IMG/VR virus record: IMGVR_UViG_2778261231_000016
Coordinates: 1 to 19,641 of that record
From: a virus
Taxonomy: Duplodnaviria; Heunggongvirae; Uroviricota; Caudoviricetes
DNA: 19,641 nucleotides
Strand: one strand, 5' to 3'
Made by a program: the position numbers and the translations under genes. Below are positions 1-18,944 of this stretch, one piece after another. The first letter of the stretch is position 1; every line of letters starts with the position of its first letter. Under the pieces are notes generated by a model. That model saw only the letters and a program-made list of their open reading frames with translations. It ran no database searches and was not told the origin of the DNA.

Positions 1-3000
1 ATGAACAGGACCAGTCCCTATTATTGTCGCCGCTCAGTACTTTCCTTATTGATATCTGCCTTGATATATGCCCCGCCCGGGATGGCTGCCTTCACTACTA
101 ATGTTATTGGTGTGGTAAACGATGAGACTGTAGATGGCAACCAAAAAGTGGATGAACGAGGTACAACAAATAACACTCATATTATCAACCATGGCCAGCA
201 GAATGTTCATGGCGGGGTATCTAATGGAAGTCTTATTGAATCTGGTGGATATCAAGATATAGGAAGTCATAACAATTTTGTGGGGCAGGCTAATAATACA
301 ACCATTAACGGTGGCAGACAGTCAATTCATGACGGGGGTATTTCCACAGGTACGACAATCGAGAGTGGCAATCAGGACGTTTATAAAGGGGGTATCAGCA
401 ATGGAACGACAATTAAGGGCGGTGCTTCACGCGTAGAGGGAGGGAGTGCGAATGGAATACTCATTGATGGTGGTAGCCAGATAGTAAAAGTTCAAGGGCA
501 TGCTGATGGTACAACGATAAATAAGTCTGGCTCTCAGGACGTAGTACAAGGAAGTCTGGCAACGAACACAACCATAAATGGTGGTCGACAGTATGTTGAA
601 CAGAGCACAGTAGAAACAACAACCATTAAAAATGGCGGTGAGCAAAGAGTATATGAGAGCCGTGCGCTGGACACGACGATTGAAGGCGGAACTCAGTCTC
701 TGAATAGTAAGTCAACGGCAAAAAATACGCATATCTATTCTGGTGGCACGCAAATTGTTGATAACACCAGCACCTCGGATGTTATTGAAGTTTATTCTGG
801 TGGCGTGCTTGATGTTAGTGGTGGTACGGCAACAAATGTTACCCAGCACGATGGTGCAATTTTAAAAACTAACACTAACGGTACGACGGTGAGCGGTACG
901 AATAGTGAAGGTGCATTCTCCATCCACAATCACGTGGCAGACAATGTGTTGCTGGAAAACGGTGGTCATTTAGACATAAACGCATATGGTTCGGCAAACA
1001 AGACGATTATTAAAGATAAAGGAACAATGTCAGTTTTAACCAATGCTAAAGCTGATGCGACCCGAATAGATAATGGCGGGGTTATGGATGTTGCAGGAAA
1101 CGCGACAAATACCATAATTAATGGTGGCACACAGAATATTAATAATTATGGCATAGCCACAGGCACCAATATCAACAGCGGAACGCAAAATATCAAAAGC
1201 GGCGGGAAAGCTGACACAACAATTATATCCTCCGGGAGCCGGCAGGTTGTTGAGAAAGATGGTACGGCAATTGGCAGCAATATTAGCGCCGGAGGCTCGC
1301 TGATTGTCTATACCGGCGGTATTGCACATGGGGTTAACCAGGAGACGGGCAGTGCTTTAGTTGCCAACACGGGTGCAGGGACTGATATCGAAGGATACAA
1401 CAAGCTCTCTCACTTCACTATTACCGGAGGGGAGGCTAATTATGTTGTGCTGGAAAATACCGGCGAACTGACGGTAGTGGCTAAAACCTCGGCGAAAAAT
1501 ACTACCATTGATACTGGCGGTAAGCTGATTGTCCAGAAGGAGGCTAAAACAGATAGCACCAGACTTAATAATGGCGGCGTTCTGGAGGTTCAGGACGGTG
1601 GTGAGGCTAAGCATGTTGAGCAACAATCCGGCGGCGCATTAATTGCTTCCACGACCTCCGGAACACTTATCGAAGGAACCAACAGTTATGGTGATGCTTT
1701 CTACATCAGGAATTCAGAAGCTAAAAATGTAGTGCTGGAAAACGCTGGCTCATTAACAGTCGTCACTGGTTCCCGCGCAGTTGACACGATTATTAATGCC
1801 AACGGCAAAATGGATGTTTATGGAAAAGATGTTGGCACTGTACTCAATAGTGCTGGCACCCAAACAATATATGCCAGTGCCACTTCTGATAAAGCAAATA
1901 TCAAAGGTGGCAAGCAAACGGTATATGGTTTAGCCACTGAAGCAAATATCGAAAGTGGTGAACAAATTGTTGATGGTGGGTCAACAGAGAAAACACACAT
2001 CAATGGTGGCACGCAAACCGTTCAGAATTATGGTAAGGCAATCAATACCGATATCGTCTCTGGCCTACAACAAATTATGGCAAACGGGACAGCGGAAGGT
2101 TCCATTATTAATGGGGGTTCACAGGTAGTTAATGAGGGCGGTCTGGCTGAAAACTCGGTGCTTAATGACGGCGGCACACTCGATGTGCGGGAGAAAGGCA
2201 GCGCAACGGGGATACAGCAGAGTAGCCAGGGCGCTTTGGTTGCAACCACCAGGGCGACGCGGGTCACAGGAACACGCGCGGATGGCGTCGCGTTCAGCAT
2301 CGAGCAGGGTGCGGCGAACAATATCCTGCTGGCAAATGGCGGCGTGTTAACCGTGGAGTCAGACACCTCTTCTGACAAAACACAGGTCAATATGGGCGGA
2401 CGGGAGATCGTCAAAACAAAAGCCACTGCGACAGGCACGACGCTCACCGGCGGTGAACAAATTGTCGAGGGTGTGGCGAATGAGACAACAATTAACGACG
2501 GCGGAATACAAACAGTTTCAGCTAACGGAGAGGCAATAAAAACAAAGATCAATGAAGGCGGTACGCTGACAGTCAACGATAATGGCAAAGCGACAGATAT
2601 CGTCCAGAACAGCGGTGCCGCTCTCCAGACGAGCACGGCTAACGGTATTGAAATCAGCGGTACTCACCAGTACGGTACTTTTTCCATTTCCGGCAATTTA
2701 GCGACCAATATGTTGCTGGAAAATGGCGGTAATTTATTGGTATTAGCAGGTACCGAAGCTCGCGACTCCACGGTTGGCAAGGGGGGGGCAATGCAAAACC
2801 TGGGTCAGGACTCCGCCACAAAGGTTAACTCTGGCGGGCAATATACCCTTGGGCGGTCAAAAGATGAGTTTCAGGCTCTGGCCCGGGCAGAAGATCTCCA
2901 GGTCGCTGGCGGTACGGCAATCGTCTACGCAGGTACGCTGGCGGATGCATCGGTCAGTGGCGCGACAGGAAGCCTGTCGTTAATGACGCCACGGGATAAT

Positions 3001-4581
3001 GTTACGCCAGTTAAACTCGAAGGGGCGGTCCGGATTACCGATAGCGCGACATTGACTCTGGGAAATGGCGTCGATACCACGCTTGCCGACCTGACGGCTG
3101 CCAGCCGGGGCAGTGTCTGGCTTAACAGCAATAATTCCTGTGCAGGTACCAGCAACTGCGAATATAGAGTAAACAGTTTGCTACTCAACGACGGTGATGT
3201 TTATTTGTCAGCACAAACAGCAGCGCCTGCCACAACTAACGGTATCTACAATACGCTGACAACCAATGAACTTTCCGGTAGCGGTAATTTCTACCTGCAT
3301 ACCAACGTTGCAGGCTCCCGGGGCGATCAACTGGTCGTCAACAACAACGCCACTGGTAATTTTAAAATCTTTGTTCAGGATACCGGCGTCAGCCCACAGT
3401 CTGACGACGCGATGACGCTGGTGAAAACAGGGGGAGGGGATGCTTCGTTTACGCTGGGCAATACCGGCGGTTTCGTTGATCTTGGGACCTATGAGTATGT
3501 CCTGAAAAGTGACGGCAACAGCAACTGGAACCTGACCAATGATGTCAAACCCAACCCGGACCCCATCCCAAATCCAAAGCCAGACCCAAAACCCGATCCA
3601 AAGCCAGACCCAAATCCAAAACCAGACCCTACTCCCGATCCAACGCCGACACCCGTTCCGGAGAAACGCATTACGCCTTCTACGGCAGCCGTACTCAATA
3701 TGGCAGCAACATTACCGTTGGTATTTGATGCTGAGCTAAACAGTATTCGCGAGCGGTTGAACATAATGAAAGCGAGTCCACACAACAATAATGTCTGGGG
3801 GGCGACGTATAACACCCGTAATAATGTCACCACCGATGCGGGTGCCGGGTTTGAGCAGACGCTGACCGGAATGACAGTGGGGATCGACAGCCGTAATGAT
3901 ATTCCTGAAGGAATTACCACGCTAGGCGCTTTTATGGGCTATTCCCATTCACATATCGGTTTTGATCGCGGAGGACATGGCAGTGTGGGCAGTTATTCTC
4001 TGGGCGGCTATGCCAGTTGGGAACATGAAAGTGGTTTCTATCTGGACGGTGTCGTGAAGCTGAACCGTTTTAAAAGTAACGTAGCAGGTAAAATGAGCAG
4101 CGGTGGAGCCGCCAATGGCAGTTACCACAGCAACGGGCTGGGCGGTCACATTGAAACCGGGATGCGATTTACCGATGGTAACTGGAACCTGACGCCGTAT
4201 GCATCGTTAACGGGGTTCACCGCTGATAACCCCGAATATCATTTATCCAATGGCATGAAATCGAAATCAGTCGATACCCGCAGTATATATCGTGAACTGG
4301 GCGCAACGCTGAGTTACAACATGCGTCTGGGGAACGGTATGGAAGTTGAGCCGTGGCTGAAGGCGGCTGTGCGCAAAGAATTTGTCGATGATAACCGGGT
4401 GAAAGTGAATAGTGACGGTAATTTCGTCAATTATTTGTCGGGCAGACGTGGAATATACCAGGCAGGTATTAAAGCCTCATTCAGCAGTACGTTAAGCGGG
4501 CATCTTGGGGTGGGGTATAGCCATAGTGCCGGTGTGGAATCCCCGTGGAACGCGGTAGCTGGTGTGAACTGGTCGTTCTGA
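1..4581 (+). CDS. ypjA: AIDA-I/Ag43-type autotransporter adhesin (YpjA-like), 1526 aa
   Basis: Seen: ATG at 1; N-terminal signal-like segment MNRTSPYYCRRSVLSLLISALIYAPPGMAAF; long passenger of degenerate ~19-aa beta-helix repeats (GGxQxVxxGGxAxxTxIxxGG); Pro-rich PNPDPIPNPKPDPKPDP linker; C-terminal beta-barrel translocator ending in aromatic ...GVNWSF. Symbol from memory of the E. coli K-12 smpB-ssrA neighbourhood and the 1526-aa length; not verified by search. Confidence 0.85.
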   Translation: MNRTSPYYCRRSVLSLLISALIYAPPGMAAFTTNVIGVVNDETVDGNQKVDERGTTNNTHIINHGQQNVHGGVSNGSLIESGGYQDIGSHNNFVGQANNTTINGGRQSIHDGGISTGTTIESGNQDVYKGGISNGTTIKGGASRVEGGSANGILIDGGSQIVKVQGHADGTTINKSGSQDVVQGSLATNTTINGGRQYVEQSTVETTTIKNGGEQRVYESRALDTTIEGGTQSLNSKSTAKNTHIYSGGTQIVDNTSTSDVIEVYSGGVLDVSGGTATNVTQHDGAILKTNTNGTTVSGTNSEGAFSIHNHVADNVLLENGGHLDINAYGSANKTIIKDKGTMSVLTNAKADATRIDNGGVMDVAGNATNTIINGGTQNINNYGIATGTNINSGTQNIKSGGKADTTIISSGSRQVVEKDGTAIGSNISAGGSLIVYTGGIAHGVNQETGSALVANTGAGTDIEGYNKLSHFTITGGEANYVVLENTGELTVVAKTSAKNTTIDTGGKLIVQKEAKTDSTRLNNGGVLEVQDGGEAKHVEQQSGGALIASTTSGTLIEGTNSYGDAFYIRNSEAKNVVLENAGSLTVVTGSRAVDTIINANGKMDVYGKDVGTVLNSAGTQTIYASATSDKANIKGGKQTVYGLATEANIESGEQIVDGGSTEKTHINGGTQTVQNYGKAINTDIVSGLQQIMANGTAEGSIINGGSQVVNEGGLAENSVLNDGGTLDVREKGSATGIQQSSQGALVATTRATRVTGTRADGVAFSIEQGAANNILLANGGVLTVESDTSSDKTQVNMGGREIVKTKATATGTTLTGGEQIVEGVANETTINDGGIQTVSANGEAIKTKINEGGTLTVNDNGKATDIVQNSGAALQTSTANGIEISGTHQYGTFSISGNLATNMLLENGGNLLVLAGTEARDSTVGKGGAMQNLGQDSATKVNSGGQYTLGRSKDEFQALARAEDLQVAGGTAIVYAGTLADASVSGATGSLSLMTPRDNVTPVKLEGAVRITDSATLTLGNGVDTTLADLTAASRGSVWLNSNNSCAGTSNCEYRVNSLLLNDGDVYLSAQTAAPATTNGIYNTLTTNELSGSGNFYLHTNVAGSRGDQLVVNNNATGNFKIFVQDTGVSPQSDDAMTLVKTGGGDASFTLGNTGGFVDLGTYEYVLKSDGNSNWNLTNDVKPNPDPIPNPKPDPKPDPKPDPNPKPDPTPDPTPTPVPEKRITPSTAAVLNMAATLPLVFDAELNSIRERLNIMKASPHNNNVWGATYNTRNNVTTDAGAGFEQTLTGMTVGIDSRNDIPEGITTLGAFMGYSHSHIGFDRGGHGSVGSYSLGGYASWEHESGFYLDGVVKLNRFKSNVAGKMSSGGAANGSYHSNGLGGHIETGMRFTDGNWNLTPYASLTGFTADNPEYHLSNGMKSKSVDTRSIYRELGATLSYNMRLGNGMEVEPWLKAAVRKEFVDDNRVKVNSDGNFVNYLSGRRGIYQAGIKASFSSTLSGHLGVGYSHSAGVESPWNAVAGVNWSF
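3551..3660 (+). repeat. Imperfect 24-bp tandem repeats encoding the Pro-rich (P-x-P-K-P-D) linker of the autotransporter
   Basis: Seen: CCAAAGCCAGACCCAAA occurs at 3574-3590 and again at 3598-3614 (24-nt period) within a run of CCA/CCC/CCG-rich codons translating to PNPDPIPNPKPDPKPDPKPDPNPKPDPTPDPTPTP. Confidence 0.75.
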
Positions 4582-4785: not shown

Positions 4786-4980
4786 ACCATTTTTATTATA
4801 GTAAAAACAGTAGATTATGTTTGAAAACAATGTGTTAGTGTTATTTTGTATTTGCTCGTCTTACGCGTTTTTAATGCTCTGCCGCCAAAGTGCCGCCATT
4901 ACATCAAGCATCTAGAATAAAATTAGTTAATAAATTATAATTAATATGCTAATTGTTCTTGCATTCATAAGTGGGACGTG

Positions 4981-6714
4981 ATGAAAGAAAAAAAATTCGT
5001 TAGTGAGCTTTTCCTTGAAAATGGGCAGTTTATTTTAGTCGGTTTGACAGGTCGAACTGGTTCTGGTTGCACAACAACAGCTAATATTCTTGAAAACGAA
5101 AAAACAGTCTTCCCTGATGTAAGTAAATTACAGGGGTTTTACAAGGGATTGGATGTCCATCGTTATAATATAGTTAAAAAATTCGCAGAAAATCACTGGG
5201 AAAATTTTTACTCAATTAAGGTGAGTGACCTAATCTCAGCGTATCTTCTGATGTTAACAGTTGAGGAAGCTTCTGAATTCATTCTATCATCTAATAAATT
5301 TATCAGTAAAGGGCATTTAGATATTGTATTAACTTTTGGTGTATTCTCAGATAATCTCATTTTGACAAGATTTAAAAATGTAATTGAGAATTTGCTTGAT
5401 CATAATAGTGAATTGAAGCTTGATGAAAAAACGATTAATAAATTTATATCAATTTTGAAGTTAGTTAGAAAATTTACTAAAGAATTCAAAGCTGAACTAA
5501 ATGAGATAAACTCAAATTTATATGTTTCAGCCTATCAGTTAGCAGGTAAGTCAATTAGACGTCGTGGGCGTATTGAAGTCGATTTTGAAGATAAAGAGTT
5601 TATGCCTAAATCTGTTTTTCATTTGCCGGAAACTATTAATAGGGTTATTAAATTAATAAGAAAAAGCAAAAGAGATAACGCATTAATTGTCATAGATGCT
5701 ATTAGAAATCCATATGAGGCAAAATTTTTTAAGGATAGATATTCTGCATTTCATTTAATGTCAATAAATGCCCCAGATGAACATCGAACAAACTATTTGC
5801 GGAAACTACATAAGTTTTCAGAAAAGCAGATAGAGGAAATAGATTCTGTAGAGTCAGGTAAAGGTGATAACTCTTACAAACATCTCACCAATCCAAATGT
5901 AACTAAATGTATTGAACTATCAGATATACACATTTTTAACCCAAAAAATGAATTTGATAATGATAATATTTTAAAAGCACAATTAGCGTGGTACATCGCA
6001 CTGATGAAGCATCCTGGTCTGATAACACCTACTGCAATGGAAAGGGTTATGCAAGTTGCGTATACGGTAAAATTAAACTCTGGCTGTATATCTAGACAGG
6101 TGGGAGCTGTAGTAACTGATGGTGATAATTCAATAAAATCAGTTGGTTGGAATGATGTTGCCAACGGTCAGATTCCTTGCTCTATGAGATCTCTAGATGG
6201 CCTAATGAACGATTTTGATGAAAAAACGTACAGTCATTATGAGAGAAATAATAGTTCTTTCAGAATTAAAGCTAATGAGAAACTCTTAAATTTTAGGGCG
6301 ATAGATAAAACTGGTGATATTTATAGAGGCAGGAACTTATCTTATTGTTTTAAAGATATACATAATGATCTTGATAAAGAGAAAAAAGGTAATCAAGTTC
6401 ATACACGTGCATTACATGCTGAGGAAAACGCATTTTTACAACTTGCAAAATATGGTGGTATTGGCGTTCTTGGGGGGAAGTTGTATACAACTGCCAGTCC
6501 CTGTGAGTTGTGTGCGAAAAAAGCTTATCAGTTAGGTATATCTGAAATTGTATTTATTGATCCCTACCCAGGTATAGCTCAAGACCATATTATTAATATA
6601 GGTAGTAAGCCACCAAAGTTAATACAATTTAGAGGCGCAATTGGGAAGTCATATCACCGACTTTATGAGCAAATTATCCCGATAAAAGATGAGTTAGAAT
6701 ATCTCCTTGAGTAG
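4981..6714 (+). CDS. P-loop nucleotide-kinase-like domain fused to cytidine/dCMP-deaminase domain; AvcD/DcdV-like antiphage nucleotide-depletion enzyme (577 aa from ATG 4981; GTG at 4978 is an alternative start)
   Basis: Seen: P-loop G-L-T-G-R-T-G-S-G-C-T-T at 5041-5076 with Cys where the Walker-A Lys is expected; deaminase zinc motifs H-A-E at 6415-6423 and P-C-E-L-C at 6499-6513; very AT-rich compared with flanking phage genes. Established: this two-domain architecture is characteristic of AvcD/DcdV and the dCTP-deaminase defence proteins. Family assignment is from motif recognition only. Confidence 0.7.
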   Translation: MKEKKFVSELFLENGQFILVGLTGRTGSGCTTTANILENEKTVFPDVSKLQGFYKGLDVHRYNIVKKFAENHWENFYSIKVSDLISAYLLMLTVEEASEFILSSNKFISKGHLDIVLTFGVFSDNLILTRFKNVIENLLDHNSELKLDEKTINKFISILKLVRKFTKEFKAELNEINSNLYVSAYQLAGKSIRRRGRIEVDFEDKEFMPKSVFHLPETINRVIKLIRKSKRDNALIVIDAIRNPYEAKFFKDRYSAFHLMSINAPDEHRTNYLRKLHKFSEKQIEEIDSVESGKGDNSYKHLTNPNVTKCIELSDIHIFNPKNEFDNDNILKAQLAWYIALMKHPGLITPTAMERVMQVAYTVKLNSGCISRQVGAVVTDGDNSIKSVGWNDVANGQIPCSMRSLDGLMNDFDEKTYSHYERNNSSFRIKANEKLLNFRAIDKTGDIYRGRNLSYCFKDIHNDLDKEKKGNQVHTRALHAEENAFLQLAKYGGIGVLGGKLYTTASPCELCAKKAYQLGISEIVFIDPYPGIAQDHIINIGSKPPKLIQFRGAIGKSYHRLYEQIIPIKDELEYLLE

Positions 6715-7095: not shown

Positions 7096-8112
7096 CTATC
7101 TTAAGTTGCATAAAGGGTTTTTAGTTACCGCATCTTCAAGGTGATCGGGCGAAAAGTGGGCGTAAATCATCGTCATTTTTATATCGGCATGGCCCAGAAT
7201 ATCGCGCAGCACCAGTATGTTTCCGCCATTCATCATAAAATGGCTGGCGAATGTATGACGTAGCACGTGAGTGCATTGGCCCTCTGGCAGCTCGATGCCA
7301 GCTCGCTTTACTGCTCGTTCAAAGGCTTTTCTGCACGGGGTGAATAGCTTCCCTCTGTTCTTGGGGAGTTCGTCATACAGATCTTGAGATATCGGCACGG
7401 TGCGGTTTTTCTTACCCTTCGTCTTGGTATAAGTGATGCGGTATTTAGATAACTGATGGCCCTGCAGGTTTTCAGCTTCACTCCAGCGTGCGCCGGTGGC
7501 CAGGCATATTTTTGCAATCAAAAGCAGACTGGGGTTTTGAGAATCAGCGCAGGCATCTAGCAGACGTTTAATTTCTTCCGAGGTCAGGAACGCCAGTTCC
7601 CCCTCAGCGATTTTAAATGTTGGCAGCCCGGCGAGAGGATTTGGTGCTGACCAGTGGCCTAGTTTTTTCAATGTGCCGAAAACCGATGATAGGTTACGTT
7701 GCTCAAGATTCACCGTGCGTGGTTTTACTGGCGACATTAGTGTGCCGTCTTCGTTACGAACGTCACCTTTTAACCGTGCTTCGCGGTATTTCGTAAAGTC
7801 ACCGGCTGTCAGTTCTGAGGCGATGGGGTCGCCTAGACCATTACAGATAATTCTAAGTTTCGCCATGAGGCGCTTGGGGTCTGCGAGTGTCTGACCATAC
7901 AGGGAATACCAAAGCTCAATTAATTCTGATAGGCGTCGCCGATCATCCTTTTCACCCAACCACGGTTTTTTATTCACTTCTTCCATTGTGAAGCTTTCAA
8001 AAGCAATGGCTTCGCCTTTCGTAGCAAATTGCTTACGCACGCGCTTACCATTGCGTCCATTGGGATAGCACTCACACAACCATTTTCCGTTCGGCTGTTT
8101 TCTGATGGTCAT
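7096..8112 (-). CDS. int: P2/186-type tyrosine integrase (338 aa)
   Basis: Seen: N-terminus MTIRKQPNGKWLCECYPNGRNGKRVRKQF resembles the P2 Int N-terminus; C-terminal catalytic region has ...ATGARWSEA..., HVLRHTFASHF and ...IYAHF (tyrosine recombinase R/H-x-x-R/Y signature). Start abuts the cI stop. Confidence 0.95.
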   Translation of the reverse strand: MTIRKQPNGKWLCECYPNGRNGKRVRKQFATKGEAIAFESFTMEEVNKKPWLGEKDDRRRLSELIELWYSLYGQTLADPKRLMAKLRIICNGLGDPIASELTAGDFTKYREARLKGDVRNEDGTLMSPVKPRTVNLEQRNLSSVFGTLKKLGHWSAPNPLAGLPTFKIAEGELAFLTSEEIKRLLDACADSQNPSLLLIAKICLATGARWSEAENLQGHQLSKYRITYTKTKGKKNRTVPISQDLYDELPKNRGKLFTPCRKAFERAVKRAGIELPEGQCTHVLRHTFASHFMMNGGNILVLRDILGHADIKMTMIYAHFSPDHLEDAVTKNPLCNLR

Positions 8113-8113
8113 A

Positions 8114-8746
8114 TCAAAGGCTCTTAATGATTTTCAGTGCGCGGCCTACTACCTCAATGTCATCTAGGCCACATTCAAACGATGAATCATCCTGATGCAC
8201 TACTAATTTGTTTCCCGGAAGTCGAGTCAATTTAACAATGCTTTTTATCCCGTCAATATCGACTAACCACATACCATTTACTGGTGGTGTTTGGTTGCGA
8301 TCTATTAAATAAGAATCACCAGAAGTAGTCACCAGCAGTAGGTTGCTTGAGTCTGAGGGGAGTATGCTGCTATCAATGATTGCTTTTCCAGCATCGACCA
8401 ATAAACCACCGTTGAGAGTCGCCTTGTCAATTTCAGGAGATACTAGTTTAGAAAGAGGTACAACCTTGCTGGAGTTCACGGAATTGATATTTTTTTTAGG
8501 TTCAATGTTTGGACCTGGCTCCCCCTGTCCGGTGGTTAGCCACAGTAAAGAAACTCCTGTTTCCAAGGCGCACTGAATCACCCACTCTGCAGGAAAACTA
8601 TCTCTTAAGTATCTGTTTGCCATGGTGCTTTTTGATGCGCCTAAGTGATCGCAAAGTTGCTGTCTGGACTTGAAATCATAGGCTGCCATTAGTCTATGGA
8701 TAGCCTCTCTTCCCCCTGTATTCTCTCCAACCTTTACCTGTATCAT
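8114..8746 (-). CDS. cI: CI-type immunity repressor (186 CI-like, 210 aa)
   Basis: Seen: position immediately upstream of int on the same strand; HTH-like N-terminal region (KSRQQLCDHLGASKSTMANRYLRD); RBS AGGA 7 nt before ATG at 8746; faces an operator-containing intergenic region. Homology judged by eye. Confidence 0.8.
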   Translation of the reverse strand: MIQVKVGENTGGREAIHRLMAAYDFKSRQQLCDHLGASKSTMANRYLRDSFPAEWVIQCALETGVSLLWLTTGQGEPGPNIEPKKNINSVNSSKVVPLSKLVSPEIDKATLNGGLLVDAGKAIIDSSILPSDSSNLLLVTTSGDSYLIDRNQTPPVNGMWLVDIDGIKSIVKLTRLPGNKLVVHQDDSSFECGLDDIEVVGRALKIIKSL

Positions 8747-8865: not shown

Positions 8866-9108
8866 ATGAGCACTGATATTTCAATTCGTGTACCAAAAGA
8901 GATGGCTACGCCTGCAGAGTTCGCGGAATGGGAAGGTATCTCCCGCGGCTCTGTGTATCAAAAAATTCATCATGGTCAGCTTGCTAAATACATGGTCAAG
9001 AAAGAAAAAAACAAAGGCCGCGTAAGCCTGCGTTATTTAATGTACAAAACCGATCAGGTCCGTGAATCCCTCGGTCATTCCAACTTCCGCGTCATTGTTG
9101 GTAAGTAA
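8866..9108 (+). CDS. Small HTH protein in the apl/cox position (putative excisionase / lytic-switch regulator, 80 aa)
   Basis: Seen: first gene downstream of the rightward promoter and divergent from cI; excisionase-like HTH segment TPAEFAEWEGISRGSVYQKIHHGQL; RBS GGGAGA upstream. Assignment by position and motif only. Confidence 0.45.
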   Translation: MSTDISIRVPKEMATPAEFAEWEGISRGSVYQKIHHGQLAKYMVKKEKNKGRVSLRYLMYKTDQVRESLGHSNFRVIVGK

Positions 9109-9140: not shown

Positions 9141-9485
9141 ATGTTTGATTATAAGATTTCCAAACACCCGCATTTTGATGAAGCCTGTAGAGCTTTTGCA
9201 CTTCGTCACAATATGGCGAAGCTGGCAGAACGTTCAGGAATGAATGTCCAGACTCTGCGAAACAAACTCAACCCAGATCAACCGCATCAGCTCAATGCGC
9301 CAGATATCTGGCTACTTACCGATCTGACGGAAGATTCAACGCTGGTAGACGGTTTTCTGGCACAGATTCACTGCCTGCCATGTGTACCGATTAATGAGGT
9401 GGCAAAAGAGAAACTGCCACATTACGTCATGAGTGCAACCGCAGAGATCGGGCGTGTTGCTGCAGGTGCGGTACCGGTTTTCTAA
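9141..9485 (+). CDS. cII: Phage CII-family regulatory protein, apparently C-terminally truncated (114 aa)
   Basis: Seen: RBS AAGGGGG before ATG; N-terminal region MFDYKISKHPHFDEACRAFALRHNMAKLAERSGMNVQTLRNKLNP matches my recollection of 186-type CII proteins. Those are ~165-170 aa by memory, and here the ORF stops right at the junction with the tail-fibre stub. Confidence 0.65.
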   Translation: MFDYKISKHPHFDEACRAFALRHNMAKLAERSGMNVQTLRNKLNPDQPHQLNAPDIWLLTDLTEDSTLVDGFLAQIHCLPCVPINEVAKEKLPHYVMSATAEIGRVAAGAVPVF

Positions 9486-9871
9486 AATATAACGGAGCGT
9501 CATTCAACAAGGCAATGTATCCCAAACTTGCACAAATTTTCCCGTCAGGAGTATTACTTGATTTGCGCGGCGTATTTATTCGAGGCTGGGATGATGGAAA
9601 AGGGATTGATGCCGGGCGTGCAATACTGACACAGCAGCAGGATGCCCAGCAAAATATCACCGGCATGGTTTCTGATATGACAGTCGGCGTAAATGCTGAC
9701 GGAACAGGTGCATTTAGTATGGTCGATTTAACTACATCAGGCATTTCGGCAGGTGCACTAAATTCTTTTTATCAAAAGCATATTTATCTGGATTCCTCCA
9801 GAGTGGTCAGAACGGCAACTGAAAACCGTCCGGTAAATATCGCATTCAACTACATTGTGAGGGCTGCATAA
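9486..9871 (+). pseudogene. Tail-fibre (H-like) C-terminal remnant, 5'-truncated
   Basis: Seen: frame is open from just after the cII stop; translation contains the tail-fibre collar-like motif ...NGASFNKAMYPKLAQIF...LRGVFIRGWDDGKGIDAGRA...; no N-terminal fibre domain or proper start; stop overlaps the G start (TAATG at 9869-9873). Confidence 0.65.
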
Positions 9872-10458
9872 TGATGAACGCAGATTTAGCCATTTTAGAG
9901 AACGGTATTGCGACAACCGCCGGATGGATAACGATATATAACTATTCGGCGGTTACAGGTGAATATCTTGACAGCAACAGTGAATACATTCCAGAAGGTG
10001 TTGGATTGCCTGCGCTGGCAACAGATATTGAACCGCCGAACAGACCGGACGGTCAGGCTGTTATCTGGCAGGGTTCGTGGATACTGATGGATGACTGGCG
10101 GGGTGAAACGGTTTATTCCATTTTTGATGGTTCTGCCAGTATCGTGGATTACCTCGGGGCAATCGCAGAGGGATATACACAACAGAAACCCGCAACCCGT
10201 TTTGATAAATGGGATGGTAAGCAGTGGGTGACTGATACTGACGCGCGAAATACGGAAGCTGTTGCAGTTTCTACGCAACAGAAAGCTGCATTGCTGGCTG
10301 AAGCCACCGCGACCATAGCACCGCTTCAGGATGCAAAAGACGGAGGTTATATTGATGATGCTGATATTCCGATGTTGATTTCTTGGCAAAAATATCGCTA
10401 CGCGCTGACTAAAGTTAATCCTAAAACTCCTGTTTGGCCCAGCAAACCAAGTGTATAA
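9871..10458 (+). CDS. Tail-fibre assembly protein (P2 G-like, 195 aa)
   Basis: Seen: start overlaps the upstream fibre stop as in P2 H/G; 195-aa product in the expected position before the G-FI accessory slot. Similarity to gpG-type chaperones judged by eye. Confidence 0.8.
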   Translation: MMNADLAILENGIATTAGWITIYNYSAVTGEYLDSNSEYIPEGVGLPALATDIEPPNRPDGQAVIWQGSWILMDDWRGETVYSIFDGSASIVDYLGAIAEGYTQQKPATRFDKWDGKQWVTDTDARNTEAVAVSTQQKAALLAEATATIAPLQDAKDGGYIDDADIPMLISWQKYRYALTKVNPKTPVWPSKPSV

Positions 10459-10470
10459 ATGGTAATATAA

Positions 10471-10505
10471 AAGGCAGTTCACTCTATGATGAACTGCCTT
10501 TTATA
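10471..10505. terminator. Bidirectional stem-loop between convergent G and the 110-aa cargo ORF
   Basis: Seen: AAGGCAGTTCA (10471-10481), 8-nt loop, TGAACTGCCTT (10490-10500), followed by TTTAT on the plus strand and TTATATT on the minus strand. Confidence 0.6.
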
Positions 10506-10524: not shown

Positions 10525-10857
10525 TTATTTACCAAACAAAGAAACTATGTTGACTGCGACTGTGGTGATATCAGTCGCAGGTTTTAGCCATTTACTGATT
10601 TCATACTTGTCAAGGATTGAAGGGTACTCACTTGCTTCAACTGTTTTCAATTGATGTGCCGCTTGATTAATGTTTTCAAGTGGCGCGCCGGGAATGAAAT
10701 TTTCTTCTAGAAAGCTTTTTTGGCTTTCATATATTGATATCGCCTCGCCATTTCCAGAAAAAGTAGTTTCTTTAAAAACTAACTCTGTACACTCTGGTGC
10801 TCGAACTCCAATCGTATTATTAATAAAAGTACAACCCTCGAAAGTATGCTTACCCAT
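10525..10857 (-). CDS. Hypothetical protein (110 aa), AT-rich cargo in the G-FI (P2 Z/fun-equivalent) slot
   Basis: Seen: ATG at 10855-10857, stop followed by the stem-loop above; opposite orientation to all flanking late genes; markedly lower GC than neighbours; no recognisable motif, no signal peptide or obvious TM segment. Confidence 0.6.
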   Translation of the reverse strand: MGKHTFEGCTFINNTIGVRAPECTELVFKETTFSGNGEAISIYESQKSFLEENFIPGAPLENINQAAHQLKTVEASEYPSILDKYEISKWLKPATDITTVAVNIVSLFGK

Positions 10858-11032
10858 TTTTAGATTTTACCTTGGTTGCGTAGTGAAACCATTAGTTTAC
10901 ATCTTTCACCAGTAGCAATAAAAATGATGGTTAAGAATTGAGACGAGTATCACTGAACTATACATGCTGACCAAAGGAACCTTTCAAAGAATTTAAATGC
11001 GCTGCTAACGATCATTTTTCGTCAATATCAAT

Positions 11033-11050
11033 TGTGCTATTTCCCACACA
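11033..11050 (+). promoter_or_regulatory. Candidate Ogr-dependent late-promoter element (TGT-N12-ACA) upstream of the FI operon
   Basis: Seen: TGTGCTATTTCCCACACA at 11033-11050, ~75 nt upstream of the FI ATG. Established: P2 late promoters carry a TGT-N12-ACA dyad centred near -55 recognised by Ogr. Single motif match, so moderate confidence. Confidence 0.45.
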
Positions 11051-11124: not shown

Positions 11125-12297
11125 ATGGCTCAGGATTACCACCACGGGGTGCGCGTTGTTGAAATCAACGAGGGCACCCGATCCATTACCACGGTGAGCA
11201 CCGCCATCGTGGGCATGGTCTGCACCGGCGATGATGCTGATGCGTCCATGTTTCCCCTCAATAAGCCGGTCCTGCTGACCGATGTGCTGACTGCCAGCGG
11301 TAAAGCGGGCGAGTCCGGCACGCTGGCCCGTTCGCTGGATGCGATTGCAGACCAGGCTAAACCCGTGACCGTCGTTGTGCGCGTGGCACAGGGCGAAACC
11401 GAAGCGGAAACAACCTCCAACATTATCGGCGGCGTAACTGCTGACGGTAAAAAAACGGGTATGAAAGCGCTGCTTTCGGCGCAGTCGCAGTTGGGCGTCA
11501 AGCCGCGCATTCTCGGCGTGCCGGGGCATGACACGCAAGCGGTTGCCACTGAGCTGCTGAGCGTGGCGCAGAGCCTGCGCGGGTTTGCCTACCTGTCCGC
11601 TTATGGCTGCAAAACGGTAGAAGAAGCGATTGCCTACCGTGACAATTTCAGCCAGCGCGAGGGGATGCTGATCTGGCCTGACTTCATCAACTTTGACACC
11701 GTGCTGAATGCCGACGCGACGGCTTACGCCTCCGCCCGTGCGCTCGGCCTGCGCGCCAAAATTGACGAGCAGACCGGCTGGCACAAAACCCTGTCCAACG
11801 TGGGCGTGAACGGCGTTACCGGCATTTCCGCTGATGTGTTCTGGGATCTGCAGGACCCGGCAACCGATGCGGGACTACTGAACCAGAACGACGTCACCAC
11901 GCTTATCCGCAAAGATGGCTTCCGCTTCTGGGGTTCCCGCTGCCTCAGTGACGATCCTCTGTTTGCCTTTGAGAACTACACCCGCACGGCGCAGGTGCTG
12001 GCTGACACCATCGCAGAAGCGCACATGTGGGCGGTGGATGGCGTACTCAACCCGTCGCTGGCCCGTGACATTATCGAAGGTATTCGGGCCAAGCTGTGCA
12101 GCCTGAAAACACAGGGCTACATCATCGGCGCAGACTGCTGGCTGGATGAGTCGGTGAACGATAAAGACTCCCTGAAAGCCGGGAAACTCACTATCGACTA
12201 CGACTACACGCCGGTGCCGCCGCTTGAAAACCTGATGCTGCGCCAGCGCATCACCGATCAGTACCTGCTGGATTTCTCCAGCCAGGTCAGCGCGTAA
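11125..12297 (+). CDS. Contractile tail sheath protein (P2 FI homologue, 390 aa)
   Basis: Seen: RBS GGAGAG 8 nt upstream; N-terminus [35 protein letters not shown] closely matches P2 FI (MSDYHHGVQVLEINEGTR...). The ORF-track start at 11032 is an upstream in-frame extension I do not believe. Confidence 0.95.
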
Positions 12298-17954: not shown

Positions 17955-17978
17955 AACCTGCTGCGGCAGGTTTTTTAT
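17955..17978. terminator. Bidirectional intrinsic terminator between convergent ogr and the BRCT-domain gene
   Basis: Seen: AACCTGC-tgcg-GCAGGTT followed by TTTTTT (17971-17976) on the plus strand; on the minus strand the hairpin is followed by TTCTTGTTTTAAAAAT. Confidence 0.65.
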
Positions 17979-18457
17979 GCGTCAGGAATTTCACCCGTTT
18001 CTATAAAATGAACAAAACTTTCTTCATCAATGATGATCGTACCCTTCATGCGTGCAGCATTTACTTTGGAAGGGCCAGCATTGTATCCGCAACAGAGCAT
18101 CTGCAGATTTTGAGTAACGGAACTTCTCACTGTCATGCTGTGCGCTTCGGCAACTTCAATCAAACGCTCTTTATCTGCCTTTTTGAAACCTGTAAAACAG
18201 ACGTCAAAAGTGAGGGTTTTGGGCTTGGTGGCCTTGGTTAGATGGATGTAATTTTCCGGTAGGAAGGACTGACAGGCTTGCTGTGCTTCATCAGCAGATG
18301 TGCATTCTTGAAGTATTCTATCTTTACGAAACGTTCTTATTGAATGGGTTGATTGGCATATACCCTGAATGTGGTTATCGCTGTAGCTAACACTGCTTAT
18401 TGAATGGGCACCAATGCGCGCATTCGCATTGATGTAAACAAAGTGCATTTCTTCCAT
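17975..18457 (-). CDS. BRCT-domain protein of unknown function (160 aa from ATG 18455-18457)
   Basis: Seen: C-terminal ~80 aa (TLTFDVCFTGFKKADKERLIEVAEAHSMTVRSSVTQNLQMLCCGYNAGPSKVNAARMKGTIIIDEESFVHFIETG) fits the BRCT pattern of NAD-ligase-type BRCT domains; strong RBS AAGGTGA 6 nt before the internal ATG. The ORF-track start at 18544 would overlap the ssrA terminator and is rejected. Confidence 0.65.
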   Translation of the reverse strand: MEEMHFVYINANARIGAHSISSVSYSDNHIQGICQSTHSIRTFRKDRILQECTSADEAQQACQSFLPENYIHLTKATKPKTLTFDVCFTGFKKADKERLIEVAEAHSMTVRSSVTQNLQMLCCGYNAGPSKVNAARMKGTIIIDEESFVHFIETGEIPDA

Positions 18458-18545
18458 GTGAATCACCTTTATTACACAAACGGTTAAGACGTTATGAACG
18501 GTGGGCAAATTGGCTGCCGCCATTTTGCCGCCACAGCCAAACAAA

Positions 18546-18581: not shown

Positions 18582-18944
18582 TGGTGGAGCTGGCGGGAGT
18601 TGAACCCGCGTCCGAAATTCCTACATCCTCGGTACTACATGCTTAGTCAGTCTTTACATTCGCTTGCCAGCTGCGGACGGACACGCCACTAACAAACTAG
18701 CCTGATTAAGTTTTAACGCTTCAACCCCAGGCAGGGCTTCCACGCGATCTCTTTTGGGTTTGACCTCTCTTGATCCCCGTCCTAAGAGCGGAGGCTAGGG
18801 AGAGAGGGCTCTAAGCAGGTTATTAAGCTGCTAAAGCGTAGTTTTCGTCGTTTGCGACTATTTTTTGCGGCTTTTTACGAGGCCAACCGCCCCTCGGCAT
18901 GCACCTTGGGTTTCGCAAATCCCGTCGAATCCAGAATCAGCCCC
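18582..18944 (-). ncRNA. ssrA: tmRNA (SsrA), 363 nt
   Basis: Seen: reverse complement begins GGGGCTGATTCTGGATTCGACGGGATTTGCG... and ends ...GGGTTCAACTCCCGCCAGCTCCACCA; contains the tag reading frame GCAAACGACGAAAACTACGCTTTAGCAGCTTAA (ANDENYALAA stop). Matches E. coli ssrA from memory. Confidence 0.97.

Follow-up and report, generated by a model that had tools for sequence, protein, structure and literature searches.

The 19,641-nt window analysed here, the whole stretch of DNA in IMG/VR virus record IMGVR_UViG_2778261231_000016, is Escherichia coli DNA at the ssrA locus and carries a degraded P2/186-like prophage. Between its tail-fibre assembly gene G and its tail sheath gene FI, an interval called Z/fun in P2, lies an open reading frame (ORF) of 110 amino acids (aa), ORF110, on the strand opposite to G, FI, and every downstream tail gene. 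ORF110 is almost certainly a real, conserved moron of an undescribed protein family, and is best read as cargo of this prophage, a self-contained gene (a 'moron') occupying the G-FI slot. The features of the slot are as follows.

9871..10458, + strand: tail-fibre assembly gene G, 195 aa (Pfam Caudo_TAP, 1.6e-19; PHROG_105, 8.9e-64)
10466..10505 (approximate), both strands: bidirectional hairpin terminator between the convergent genes G and ORF110, 17-bp stem
10525..10857, − strand: ORF110, 110 aa plus stop, ATG start, between G and FI and antisense to the late genes
10858..10979, − strand: cassette-specific upstream region (5′ untranslated region and putative promoter DNA), missing from related prophages with other cargo
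10938..10955, − strand: 18-nt block CAGTGATAYTCRTCTCAA, abutting the proposed −10; no other non-coding element of the cassette is strongly conserved
10957..10987, − strand: putative sigma-70 promoter, −35 TTGAAA (10982-10987), −10 TATAGT (10957-10962), 19-bp spacer
11033..11050, + strand: TGT-N12-ACA element in the late pF promoter region upstream of FI, conserved in the window and in the relatives E41, ET650, and FDN-24
11125..12297, + strand: tail sheath gene FI, 390 aa (Pfam Phage_sheath_1, 4.7e-32; PHROG_23, 2.3e-142)

ORF110 is a conserved coding gene

The original prediction, made from the letters of the DNA, described a minus-strand 110-aa ORF between G and FI, opposite in orientation to the flanking late genes and AT-rich. 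Both the arrangement and the composition were confirmed, the G+C content of ORF110 being 37.5% against 47.1% for G and 59.8% for FI. Among four P2-type homologues, the ORF110 sense frame alone is open in all four, and the two overlapping plus-strand ORFs (10670..10915 and 10547..10654) were rejected as their frames hit stops in the homologues. The 330 coding nucleotides align to the P2-type homologues free of indels, whereas the DNA on either side is indel-rich. In a Nei-Gojobori comparison with the Citrobacter-type copies (62-64% identity), nonsynonymous and synonymous differences amounted to pN 0.20 and pS 0.72, giving a ratio of nonsynonymous to synonymous rates (dN/dS) of 0.09-0.11 with dS saturated.

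An E. coli protein 98% identical to ORF110 is in the protein database, together with homologues at 64% and 62% identity that are exactly 110 aa long, and the same slot and antisense orientation are found in an intact E. coli P2-like prophage (L006/L007, 98% aa identity), a Citrobacter freundii prophage (L003, 64%), and a Logan contig (L008, 62%). Judged by these comparisons, ORF110 is a genuine protein-coding gene under purifying selection. In the Logan contig, a DNA methyltransferase, a resolvase/invertase, and a duplicated 109-aa N-terminal sheath fragment lie between the ORF110 homologue and FI (L008 2212..3994), forming a second cargo insertion in the G-FI slot within this one 62%-identical cassette.

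Signals and boundaries of the cassette

The hairpin terminator that had been proposed between G and ORF110 was borne out. Its 17-bp stem has a folding energy of −24.2 kcal/mol (z = −7.5), a stability that none of 200 shuffles reached; a simple terminator scan did not list it. The G+C core is followed by TTTTAT on both strands, so that the hairpin can terminate both G and ORF110, and the Citrobacter-type cassette carries a different hairpin in the same place. On the other side, 1008 E. coli genomes matched the G-FI query in megablast, with homology beginning only at window positions ~10980-11031, and the alignment with relatives agreed on this right boundary (~10980-11030).

The putative −10 of the proposed promoter lies within cargo DNA, and the putative −35 lies within backbone DNA that is also present in FDN-24, a relative with acyltransferase cargo; we regard this promoter as a weak string match and not as evidence. 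The 18-nt block CAGTGATAYTCRTCTCAA next to the proposed −10 is exact in the E. coli (window, L006, and L007) and Citrobacter-type (L003 and L004) cassettes, while the rest of the flanks is diverged and indel-rich, which lends mild support to transcription starting there. Upstream of FI, the TGT-N12-ACA element aligns with the region annotated in P2 as the pF activator binding site, TGT-N12-ACA being the consensus of Ogr-dependent promoters.

A near-palindromic CCTTTCAAAG / CCTTTGAAAG element was also observed at the FI-side boundary of the slot (window 10976..10993, L022 ~4985, and L021 ~4955). It belongs to the backbone common to prophages with different minus-strand cargo (ORF110, acyltransferase, and gtr), and it may represent either a recombination boundary or an outward-facing −35 that these prophages have in common.

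ORF110 belongs to a large unannotated family

Searches with tblastn returned weak full-length matches to 112-aa hypothetical proteins of the Klebsiella phage ST147-VIM1phi7.2 and of a Vibrio prophage that lacks a tail (order Vinavirales), and a profile search gathered 15 clusters of relatives. An exhaustive hidden Markov model (HMM) search of 1.84 billion representatives then gave 278 matches at E<=1e-3, 49 of them at E<=1e-10, and these 278 family representatives were clustered at 50% identity. The matches are mostly full-length (107-130 aa), and more than 100 full-length small homologues share the start methionine. In a non-circular profile-profile test with hhalign, the P2-type subfamily aligned with the rest of the family at 99.7% probability and E 1e-25 over 108 columns. 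Large beta-helix proteins also align to the ORF110 profile, over its generic repeat part only. The hosts include Enterobacteria, Vibrio, Acidithiobacillus, and Betaproteobacteria.

No family member bears a name beyond 'hypothetical protein' or an assigned Pfam domain, and ORF110 itself had no usable match in PHROG, NCBIfam, or PADLOC and none above threshold in Pfam, in keeping with the original prediction that it holds no recognised motif and might be undescribed. Its description as an orphan held in that no described family matches it, and failed in that a family of 278 representatives exists; on the evidence of the profile matches, ORF110 is a member of a large unannotated family, and its founding P2-type one, rather than an orphan.

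About 12 family members are longer forms of 198-245 aa with extra N-terminal beta-helix rungs. These long forms (P0016, P0021, P0029, P0034-P0038, P0045, P0057, P0059, P0068, and P0090) have a conserved N-terminal motif, and nearly all carry a methionine aligned exactly to the start methionine of the short forms, which suggests internal initiation, gene fusion, or mis-called starts.

Predicted structure suggests a small soluble binding protein

AlphaFold2 (AF2) modelled ORF110 from a 14-sequence alignment with a mean predicted local distance difference test score (pLDDT) of 89.5 and a predicted template modelling score (pTM) of 0.61. The model contains six short strands arranged 3+3 (residues 3-43) followed by helices at residues 46-53, 60-70, 75-84, and 97-108, and an Acidithiobacillus member with 17% identity was predicted to have the same layout (pLDDT 81.9). 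The Pfam Beta_helix model (PF13229) matched residues 5-55 of ORF110 at 23.6 bits, below its 25.9-bit cut-off, and gave weak matches in 29 of 57 relatives; no other model matched consistently, and none matched the helical half. We therefore infer that ORF110 probably consists of two rungs of a right-handed beta-helix and a four-helix C-terminal part. The profile and structure searches that the original prediction had proposed thus led to an unannotated family without a close fold analogue, with Foldseek returning nothing at E<=0.001 from BFVD or the Protein Data Bank (PDB) and a sequence-profile search of the PDB returning only chance FGFR2 matches at E>0.01.

The best-conserved family columns are structural (Leu, Trp90, Gly17, Pro21, and Pro59), and the family alignment contains no invariant polar or conserved catalytic residue. 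ORF110 has a polar N-terminus and no signal peptide. Its hydrophobic C-terminus was considered as a transmembrane helix or tail anchor and rejected, the best 19-mer having an apparent insertion free energy of +9.9 kcal/mol on the Hessa scale, with a median of +6.5 and 0 of 57 members below zero. A DNA mimic was rejected as well, ORF110 being only mildly acidic (pI ~5, net charge about −5). The predicted properties point to a soluble, cytoplasmic, non-enzymatic binding protein. Because the N-terminal rung begins at Met1 and the long forms extend it with further rungs, the model further suggests that the open N-terminal edge of the beta-helix may serve as a docking or dimerisation surface.

These results bear on the idea that ORF110 has no function, being either a chance ORF in AT-rich filler or a decayed piece of a larger, tailspike-like beta-helix gene. 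The sub-threshold Beta_helix match fits that idea, as do the weak or distant Shine-Dalgarno sequence of the E. coli version and the deletions that have reduced the surrounding prophage to a remnant. It is nevertheless effectively refuted by the low dN/dS, by a length held at 110 aa at 62-64% identity, by the many full-length small homologues with the same start methionine, by the restriction of large beta-helix proteins to the generic repeat part, and by the confident, compact AF2 model. We also rejected a fragment of a structural (tail fibre or tailspike) gene, given the full length and aligned start methionine of the relatives, the dN/dS of ~0.1, and the absence of a PHROG tail match. Frameshifts, a lack of purifying selection, and derivation from a structural gene, which the original prediction had itself set against a functional reading, were not what we found: ORF110 is free of indels in alignment, its dN/dS is ~0.1, and it has no structural-gene homology.

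Genomic contexts of the relatives

In the lambdoid Klebsiella phage ST147-VIM1phi7.2, the ORF110 relative lies antisense in the lysis-terminase region; its stop codon is followed directly by a canonical terminator, and ~40 nt upstream of the gene stands TTAACA-17-AATAAT, a better promoter-like site than the one proposed for ORF110. A lambdoid IMG/VR contig has its copy on the antisense strand, with the lysis genes to one side and the small terminase gene to the other. Vibrio PM2-like prophages that have integrated at dusA carry theirs close to the integrase end, on the strand opposite to the structural genes; the borders of such prophages have been reported as hotspots for accessory and defence genes (PMC11630473). 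The Vibrio copy is divergent from a 112-aa 'pectin lyase-like' beta-helix protein (L002 1455..2203, L009 7591..8339, and L010 1236..1984). This neighbour is identical in all three loci despite differing nearby phage genes. It occurs only in Vibrio, its similarity to the family is confined to generic beta-helix repeats, and we rejected it as a conserved partner.

These positions are relevant to the possibility that ORF110 serves the phage itself during lytic growth, either as an anti-defence factor or as a modulator of lysis timing or of the assembly of the phage's own tail-fibre or beta-helix proteins. The gene adjoins tail-fibre and assembly genes in P2-like phages and lies within the lysis-terminase region in lambdoid phages, its beta-helix rungs might cap fibre or spike domains that are themselves beta-helical, or lengthen them, and it is acidic (pI ~5) and small, as are many anti-defence proteins. 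However, an antisense gene with its own terminator would not be co-transcribed with the tail or lysis genes, PM2-like prophages, which are tailless, and chromosomal islands devoid of tail genes also carry the family, and anti-defence genes are reportedly rare in P2-like phages. We consider a phage-serving role quite unlikely.

More distant members adjoin YoeB/Phd and BrnTA toxin-antitoxin pairs, stand beside a HicB gene and a TIR_2 protein, or sit at the end of an integrase island, and one belongs to an array of small unknown genes, all on the same strand, that also includes acetyltransferases, DUF2846, and DUF4019. Another distant member, inside a purple-bacterium photosynthesis gene cluster, faces a 631-aa AAA_15/AAA_21 ATPase and a solo Cas1 in convergent orientation (L014 7001..10496). 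The toxin-antitoxin neighbours and the array of small genes would suit an orphan immunity protein or antitoxin-like binder that neutralises a bacteriocin, a contact-dependent or type VI secretion system (T6SS) effector, or a mobile-element toxin and so affords inter-bacterial protection, and the size, rapid divergence, and lack of catalytic residues fit immunity proteins too. By contrast, none of the ~15 contexts inspected has a toxin-domain gene directly upstream, and no Pfam immunity family matches, leaving this explanation improbable.

The G-FI slot and its cargo

In P2 itself, the G-FI slot holds fun(Z), a 528-aa minus-strand gene annotated as blocking T5. The survey of this slot that had been suggested for P2-like relatives recovered fun(Z) and, in the closest E. 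coli relatives by FI identity, other kinds of cargo: an invertase and alternative tail-fibre-assembly genes in E41, gtrA/gtrB/gtr(type) in ET650, and an acyltransferase in FDN-24. Vassallo et al. described G-FI as the second defence-enriched locus of P2, contributing three of their systems (PMC9519451), and Egorov et al. described a mixed-purpose slot with receptor-binding-protein swapping, invertases, and defence-like cargo (10.1101/2024.10.15.618418). The location of ORF110 in the Z/fun hotspot, as originally claimed, is thus correct as to the P2 fun(Z) position and its enrichment in defence genes, and needs amending in that the hotspot is mixed-purpose, which makes position alone weak evidence for defence. 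Slot position raises the prior for an accessory function that benefits the lysogen, without singling out defence.

One such function would be that of a lysogenic-conversion factor, a small cytoplasmic protein that binds to and modulates a host pathway and affects phages only indirectly. The pathway might be envelope or O-antigen biogenesis, which would agree with the other cargo of the slot, or else cell division or stress physiology. Speaking against it are the lack of a signal peptide or transmembrane helix, the two rungs, far fewer than in any known carbohydrate-active beta-helix, the lack of conserved polar or catalytic residues, and the range of family hosts with unrelated O-antigens. We judge host conversion to be unlikely.

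The remnant prophage and its surroundings

The prophage in the window is a degraded P2/186-like E. coli prophage, a deletion remnant within an island that as a whole occupies the ssrA locus. The prophage has lost its replication, head, lysis, and baseplate genes but keeps G, ORF110, and FI through D intact. The features to the left of the slot and at the right end of the window are as follows.

7096..8112, − strand: integrase
8114..8746, − strand: 186-type CI repressor
8866..9108: Cox/Apl-like gene
9141..9485: truncated cII, 114 aa
9515..9871: tail-fibre gene H, last 117 residues only, beginning within 30 bp of the end of cII
18582..18944, − strand: tmRNA gene ssrA
Right end of the window: smpB

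The H remnant corresponds to residues 454-570 of the 571-aa H of an intact relative, at 91% identity. Just outside the integrase lies a 578-aa anti-phage dCTP deaminase (4978..6714, + strand), supported by NCBIfam NF041025 (425.6 bits, cut-off 400), PADLOC dCTPase (9e-146), and a full-length PHROG_8118 match; its position fits the minor 'integrase-att' P2 defence hotspot (bioRxiv 10.64898/2026.02.27.708500), and the block from the deaminase to cII is found at 99.6% identity in several E. coli genomes. A 1526-aa ORF running in from the window edge (1..4581, + strand) is an Ag43/AIDA-I-type autotransporter adhesin, matching the autotransporter barrel at 4.5e-98 and the Ag43 model at 2.6e-104, under the equivalog cut-off of the latter. 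A 189-aa unannotated ORF (17975..18544, − strand) lies between ogr and ssrA.

A tentative role in conflict between mobile elements

The cassette structure, the predicted fold, and the contexts of the relatives led us to the following proposal. Given its orientation and location, ORF110 would be transcribed in the lysogen from a weak promoter of its own. The soluble two-rung fold without conserved catalytic residues makes stoichiometric binding the most likely mode of action, and ORF110 may accordingly act by binding another protein; the lysogen would benefit from the resulting interference with superinfecting phages or other mobile elements. It would then be a single-gene exclusion or defence factor that works through target binding rather than through catalysis or membrane insertion. 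The original prediction of a single-gene defence or exclusion role is plausible in this light, and we put forward interference with phages or mobile elements by stoichiometric binding as the leading, though tentative, reading of its role, one drawn from orientation and location and still somewhat less probable than its opposite. Rather doubtful, in our estimate, is a broader reading in which ORF110 would be the first P2-borne example to be recognised of a new family of factors in inter-phage conflict, each encoded by a single gene and lacking enzymatic activity. The family would be common to tailed temperate phages (P2-like and lambdoid) and to PM2-like prophages, which are tailless and belong to a different viral realm. 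Its members would block infection, without catalysis or insertion into the membrane, by docking an open two-rung edge and a helical tail onto some conserved protein of a phage or the host.

Several observations weigh against a defence role. With 5027 PADLOC models, no family was matched at E<=0.1 by ORF110, P0007, or P0003, the Klebsiella and Vibrio relatives included. The gene is rare: 7 of 50,697 GenBank phage records contain it, the cassette was not found by megablast in 5426 complete E. coli genomes (only 64 bp beside FI matched), tblastn found none in 72,556 plasmids, and 100,044 species-representative genomes, searched at a sensitivity suited to close relatives, held no relative. Frameshifted or truncated Klebsiella copies, which form the separate clusters P0014 and P0015 (13 and 1 member sequences), indicate that the gene decays in some lineages. 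Some family members occupy housekeeping or otherwise unremarkable chromosomal contexts, and across the ~15 contexts inspected no partner gene recurs. Close relatives of the window's prophage hold O-antigen modification genes or an invertase in the slot instead of defence genes. As for the promoter, the −35 and −10 strings that the original prediction named are indeed where it placed them; its other elements fared less well, since a consensus scan did not call the site, with its 19-bp spacer, shuffled sequence yields promoter-like sites at least as often as this region does, and the −35 belongs to the shared backbone.

The family deserves attention whichever role proves correct. P2-like hotspots have repeatedly yielded new defence systems, and their small 'hypothetical' cargo genes have mostly been passed over, there being nothing recognisable inside. 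The ORF110 family is coherent, structurally confident, and wholly unannotated, and it appears as an antisense cassette in very different temperate phages, one lineage of them tailless; this spread over tailed and tailless temperate phages is noteworthy. If a defence or exclusion role is true, the anti-phage repertoire would gain a new fold and a single-gene mechanism that needs only 110 aa and no catalysis, and the family would offer a handle on the exchange of cargo across viral realms. If ORF110 instead modulates the host or confers toxin immunity, a recurrent 'dark' prophage gene would gain a name.

Comparison with known systems

Classical phage morons are cassettes of promoter, ORF, and terminator, exemplified by lambda bor and HK97 gene 15. 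Like them, ORF110 has a foreign composition and its own terminator, runs antisense to the late genes, and separates genes that in related phages are neighbours or flank other cargo. Bor is secreted as a lipoprotein and HK97 gp15 resides in the membrane, whereas ORF110 has neither a signal peptide nor a transmembrane helix and is unrelated to them in fold. The same absence sets ORF110 apart from membrane superinfection-exclusion proteins of the Imm, Sp, SieA, and gp15 types.

The nearest counterpart in position is P2 Fun(Z) (AAD03288.1), which like ORF110 is non-essential cargo in the G-FI interval on the strand opposite to the late genes. The two differ in size (528 versus 110 aa), Fun(Z) being the product of a lysogenic-conversion gene that blocks T5, and homology between them was rejected, with a best BLASTP match of E 0.31 over 37 residues. 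The gtrA/gtrB/gtr(type), O-acyltransferase, and invertase cargo occupies the same slot, the gtr and acyltransferase genes also lie on the minus strand, and the FI-proximal backbone, including a TTGAAAGG element, is shared; these are membrane enzymes or recombinases of known families, in contrast to the small, soluble ORF110 of no known family. The defence systems of the P2 fun locus and of P2 hotspots (the PD-T4/PD-lambda series, Old, Tin, and others; PADLOC 2.0) resemble ORF110 in being carried in a P2-like hotspot, but no model of them matches it.

In architecture, right-handed parallel beta-helix (pectate-lyase-like/PbH1) proteins, including phage tailspikes and fibres, are among the closest known systems to ORF110. 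A moron in the Z/fun hotspot is already known in kind; what is new is the protein family and its predicted architecture of a two-rung beta-helix with a helical tail, both undescribed in the libraries searched.

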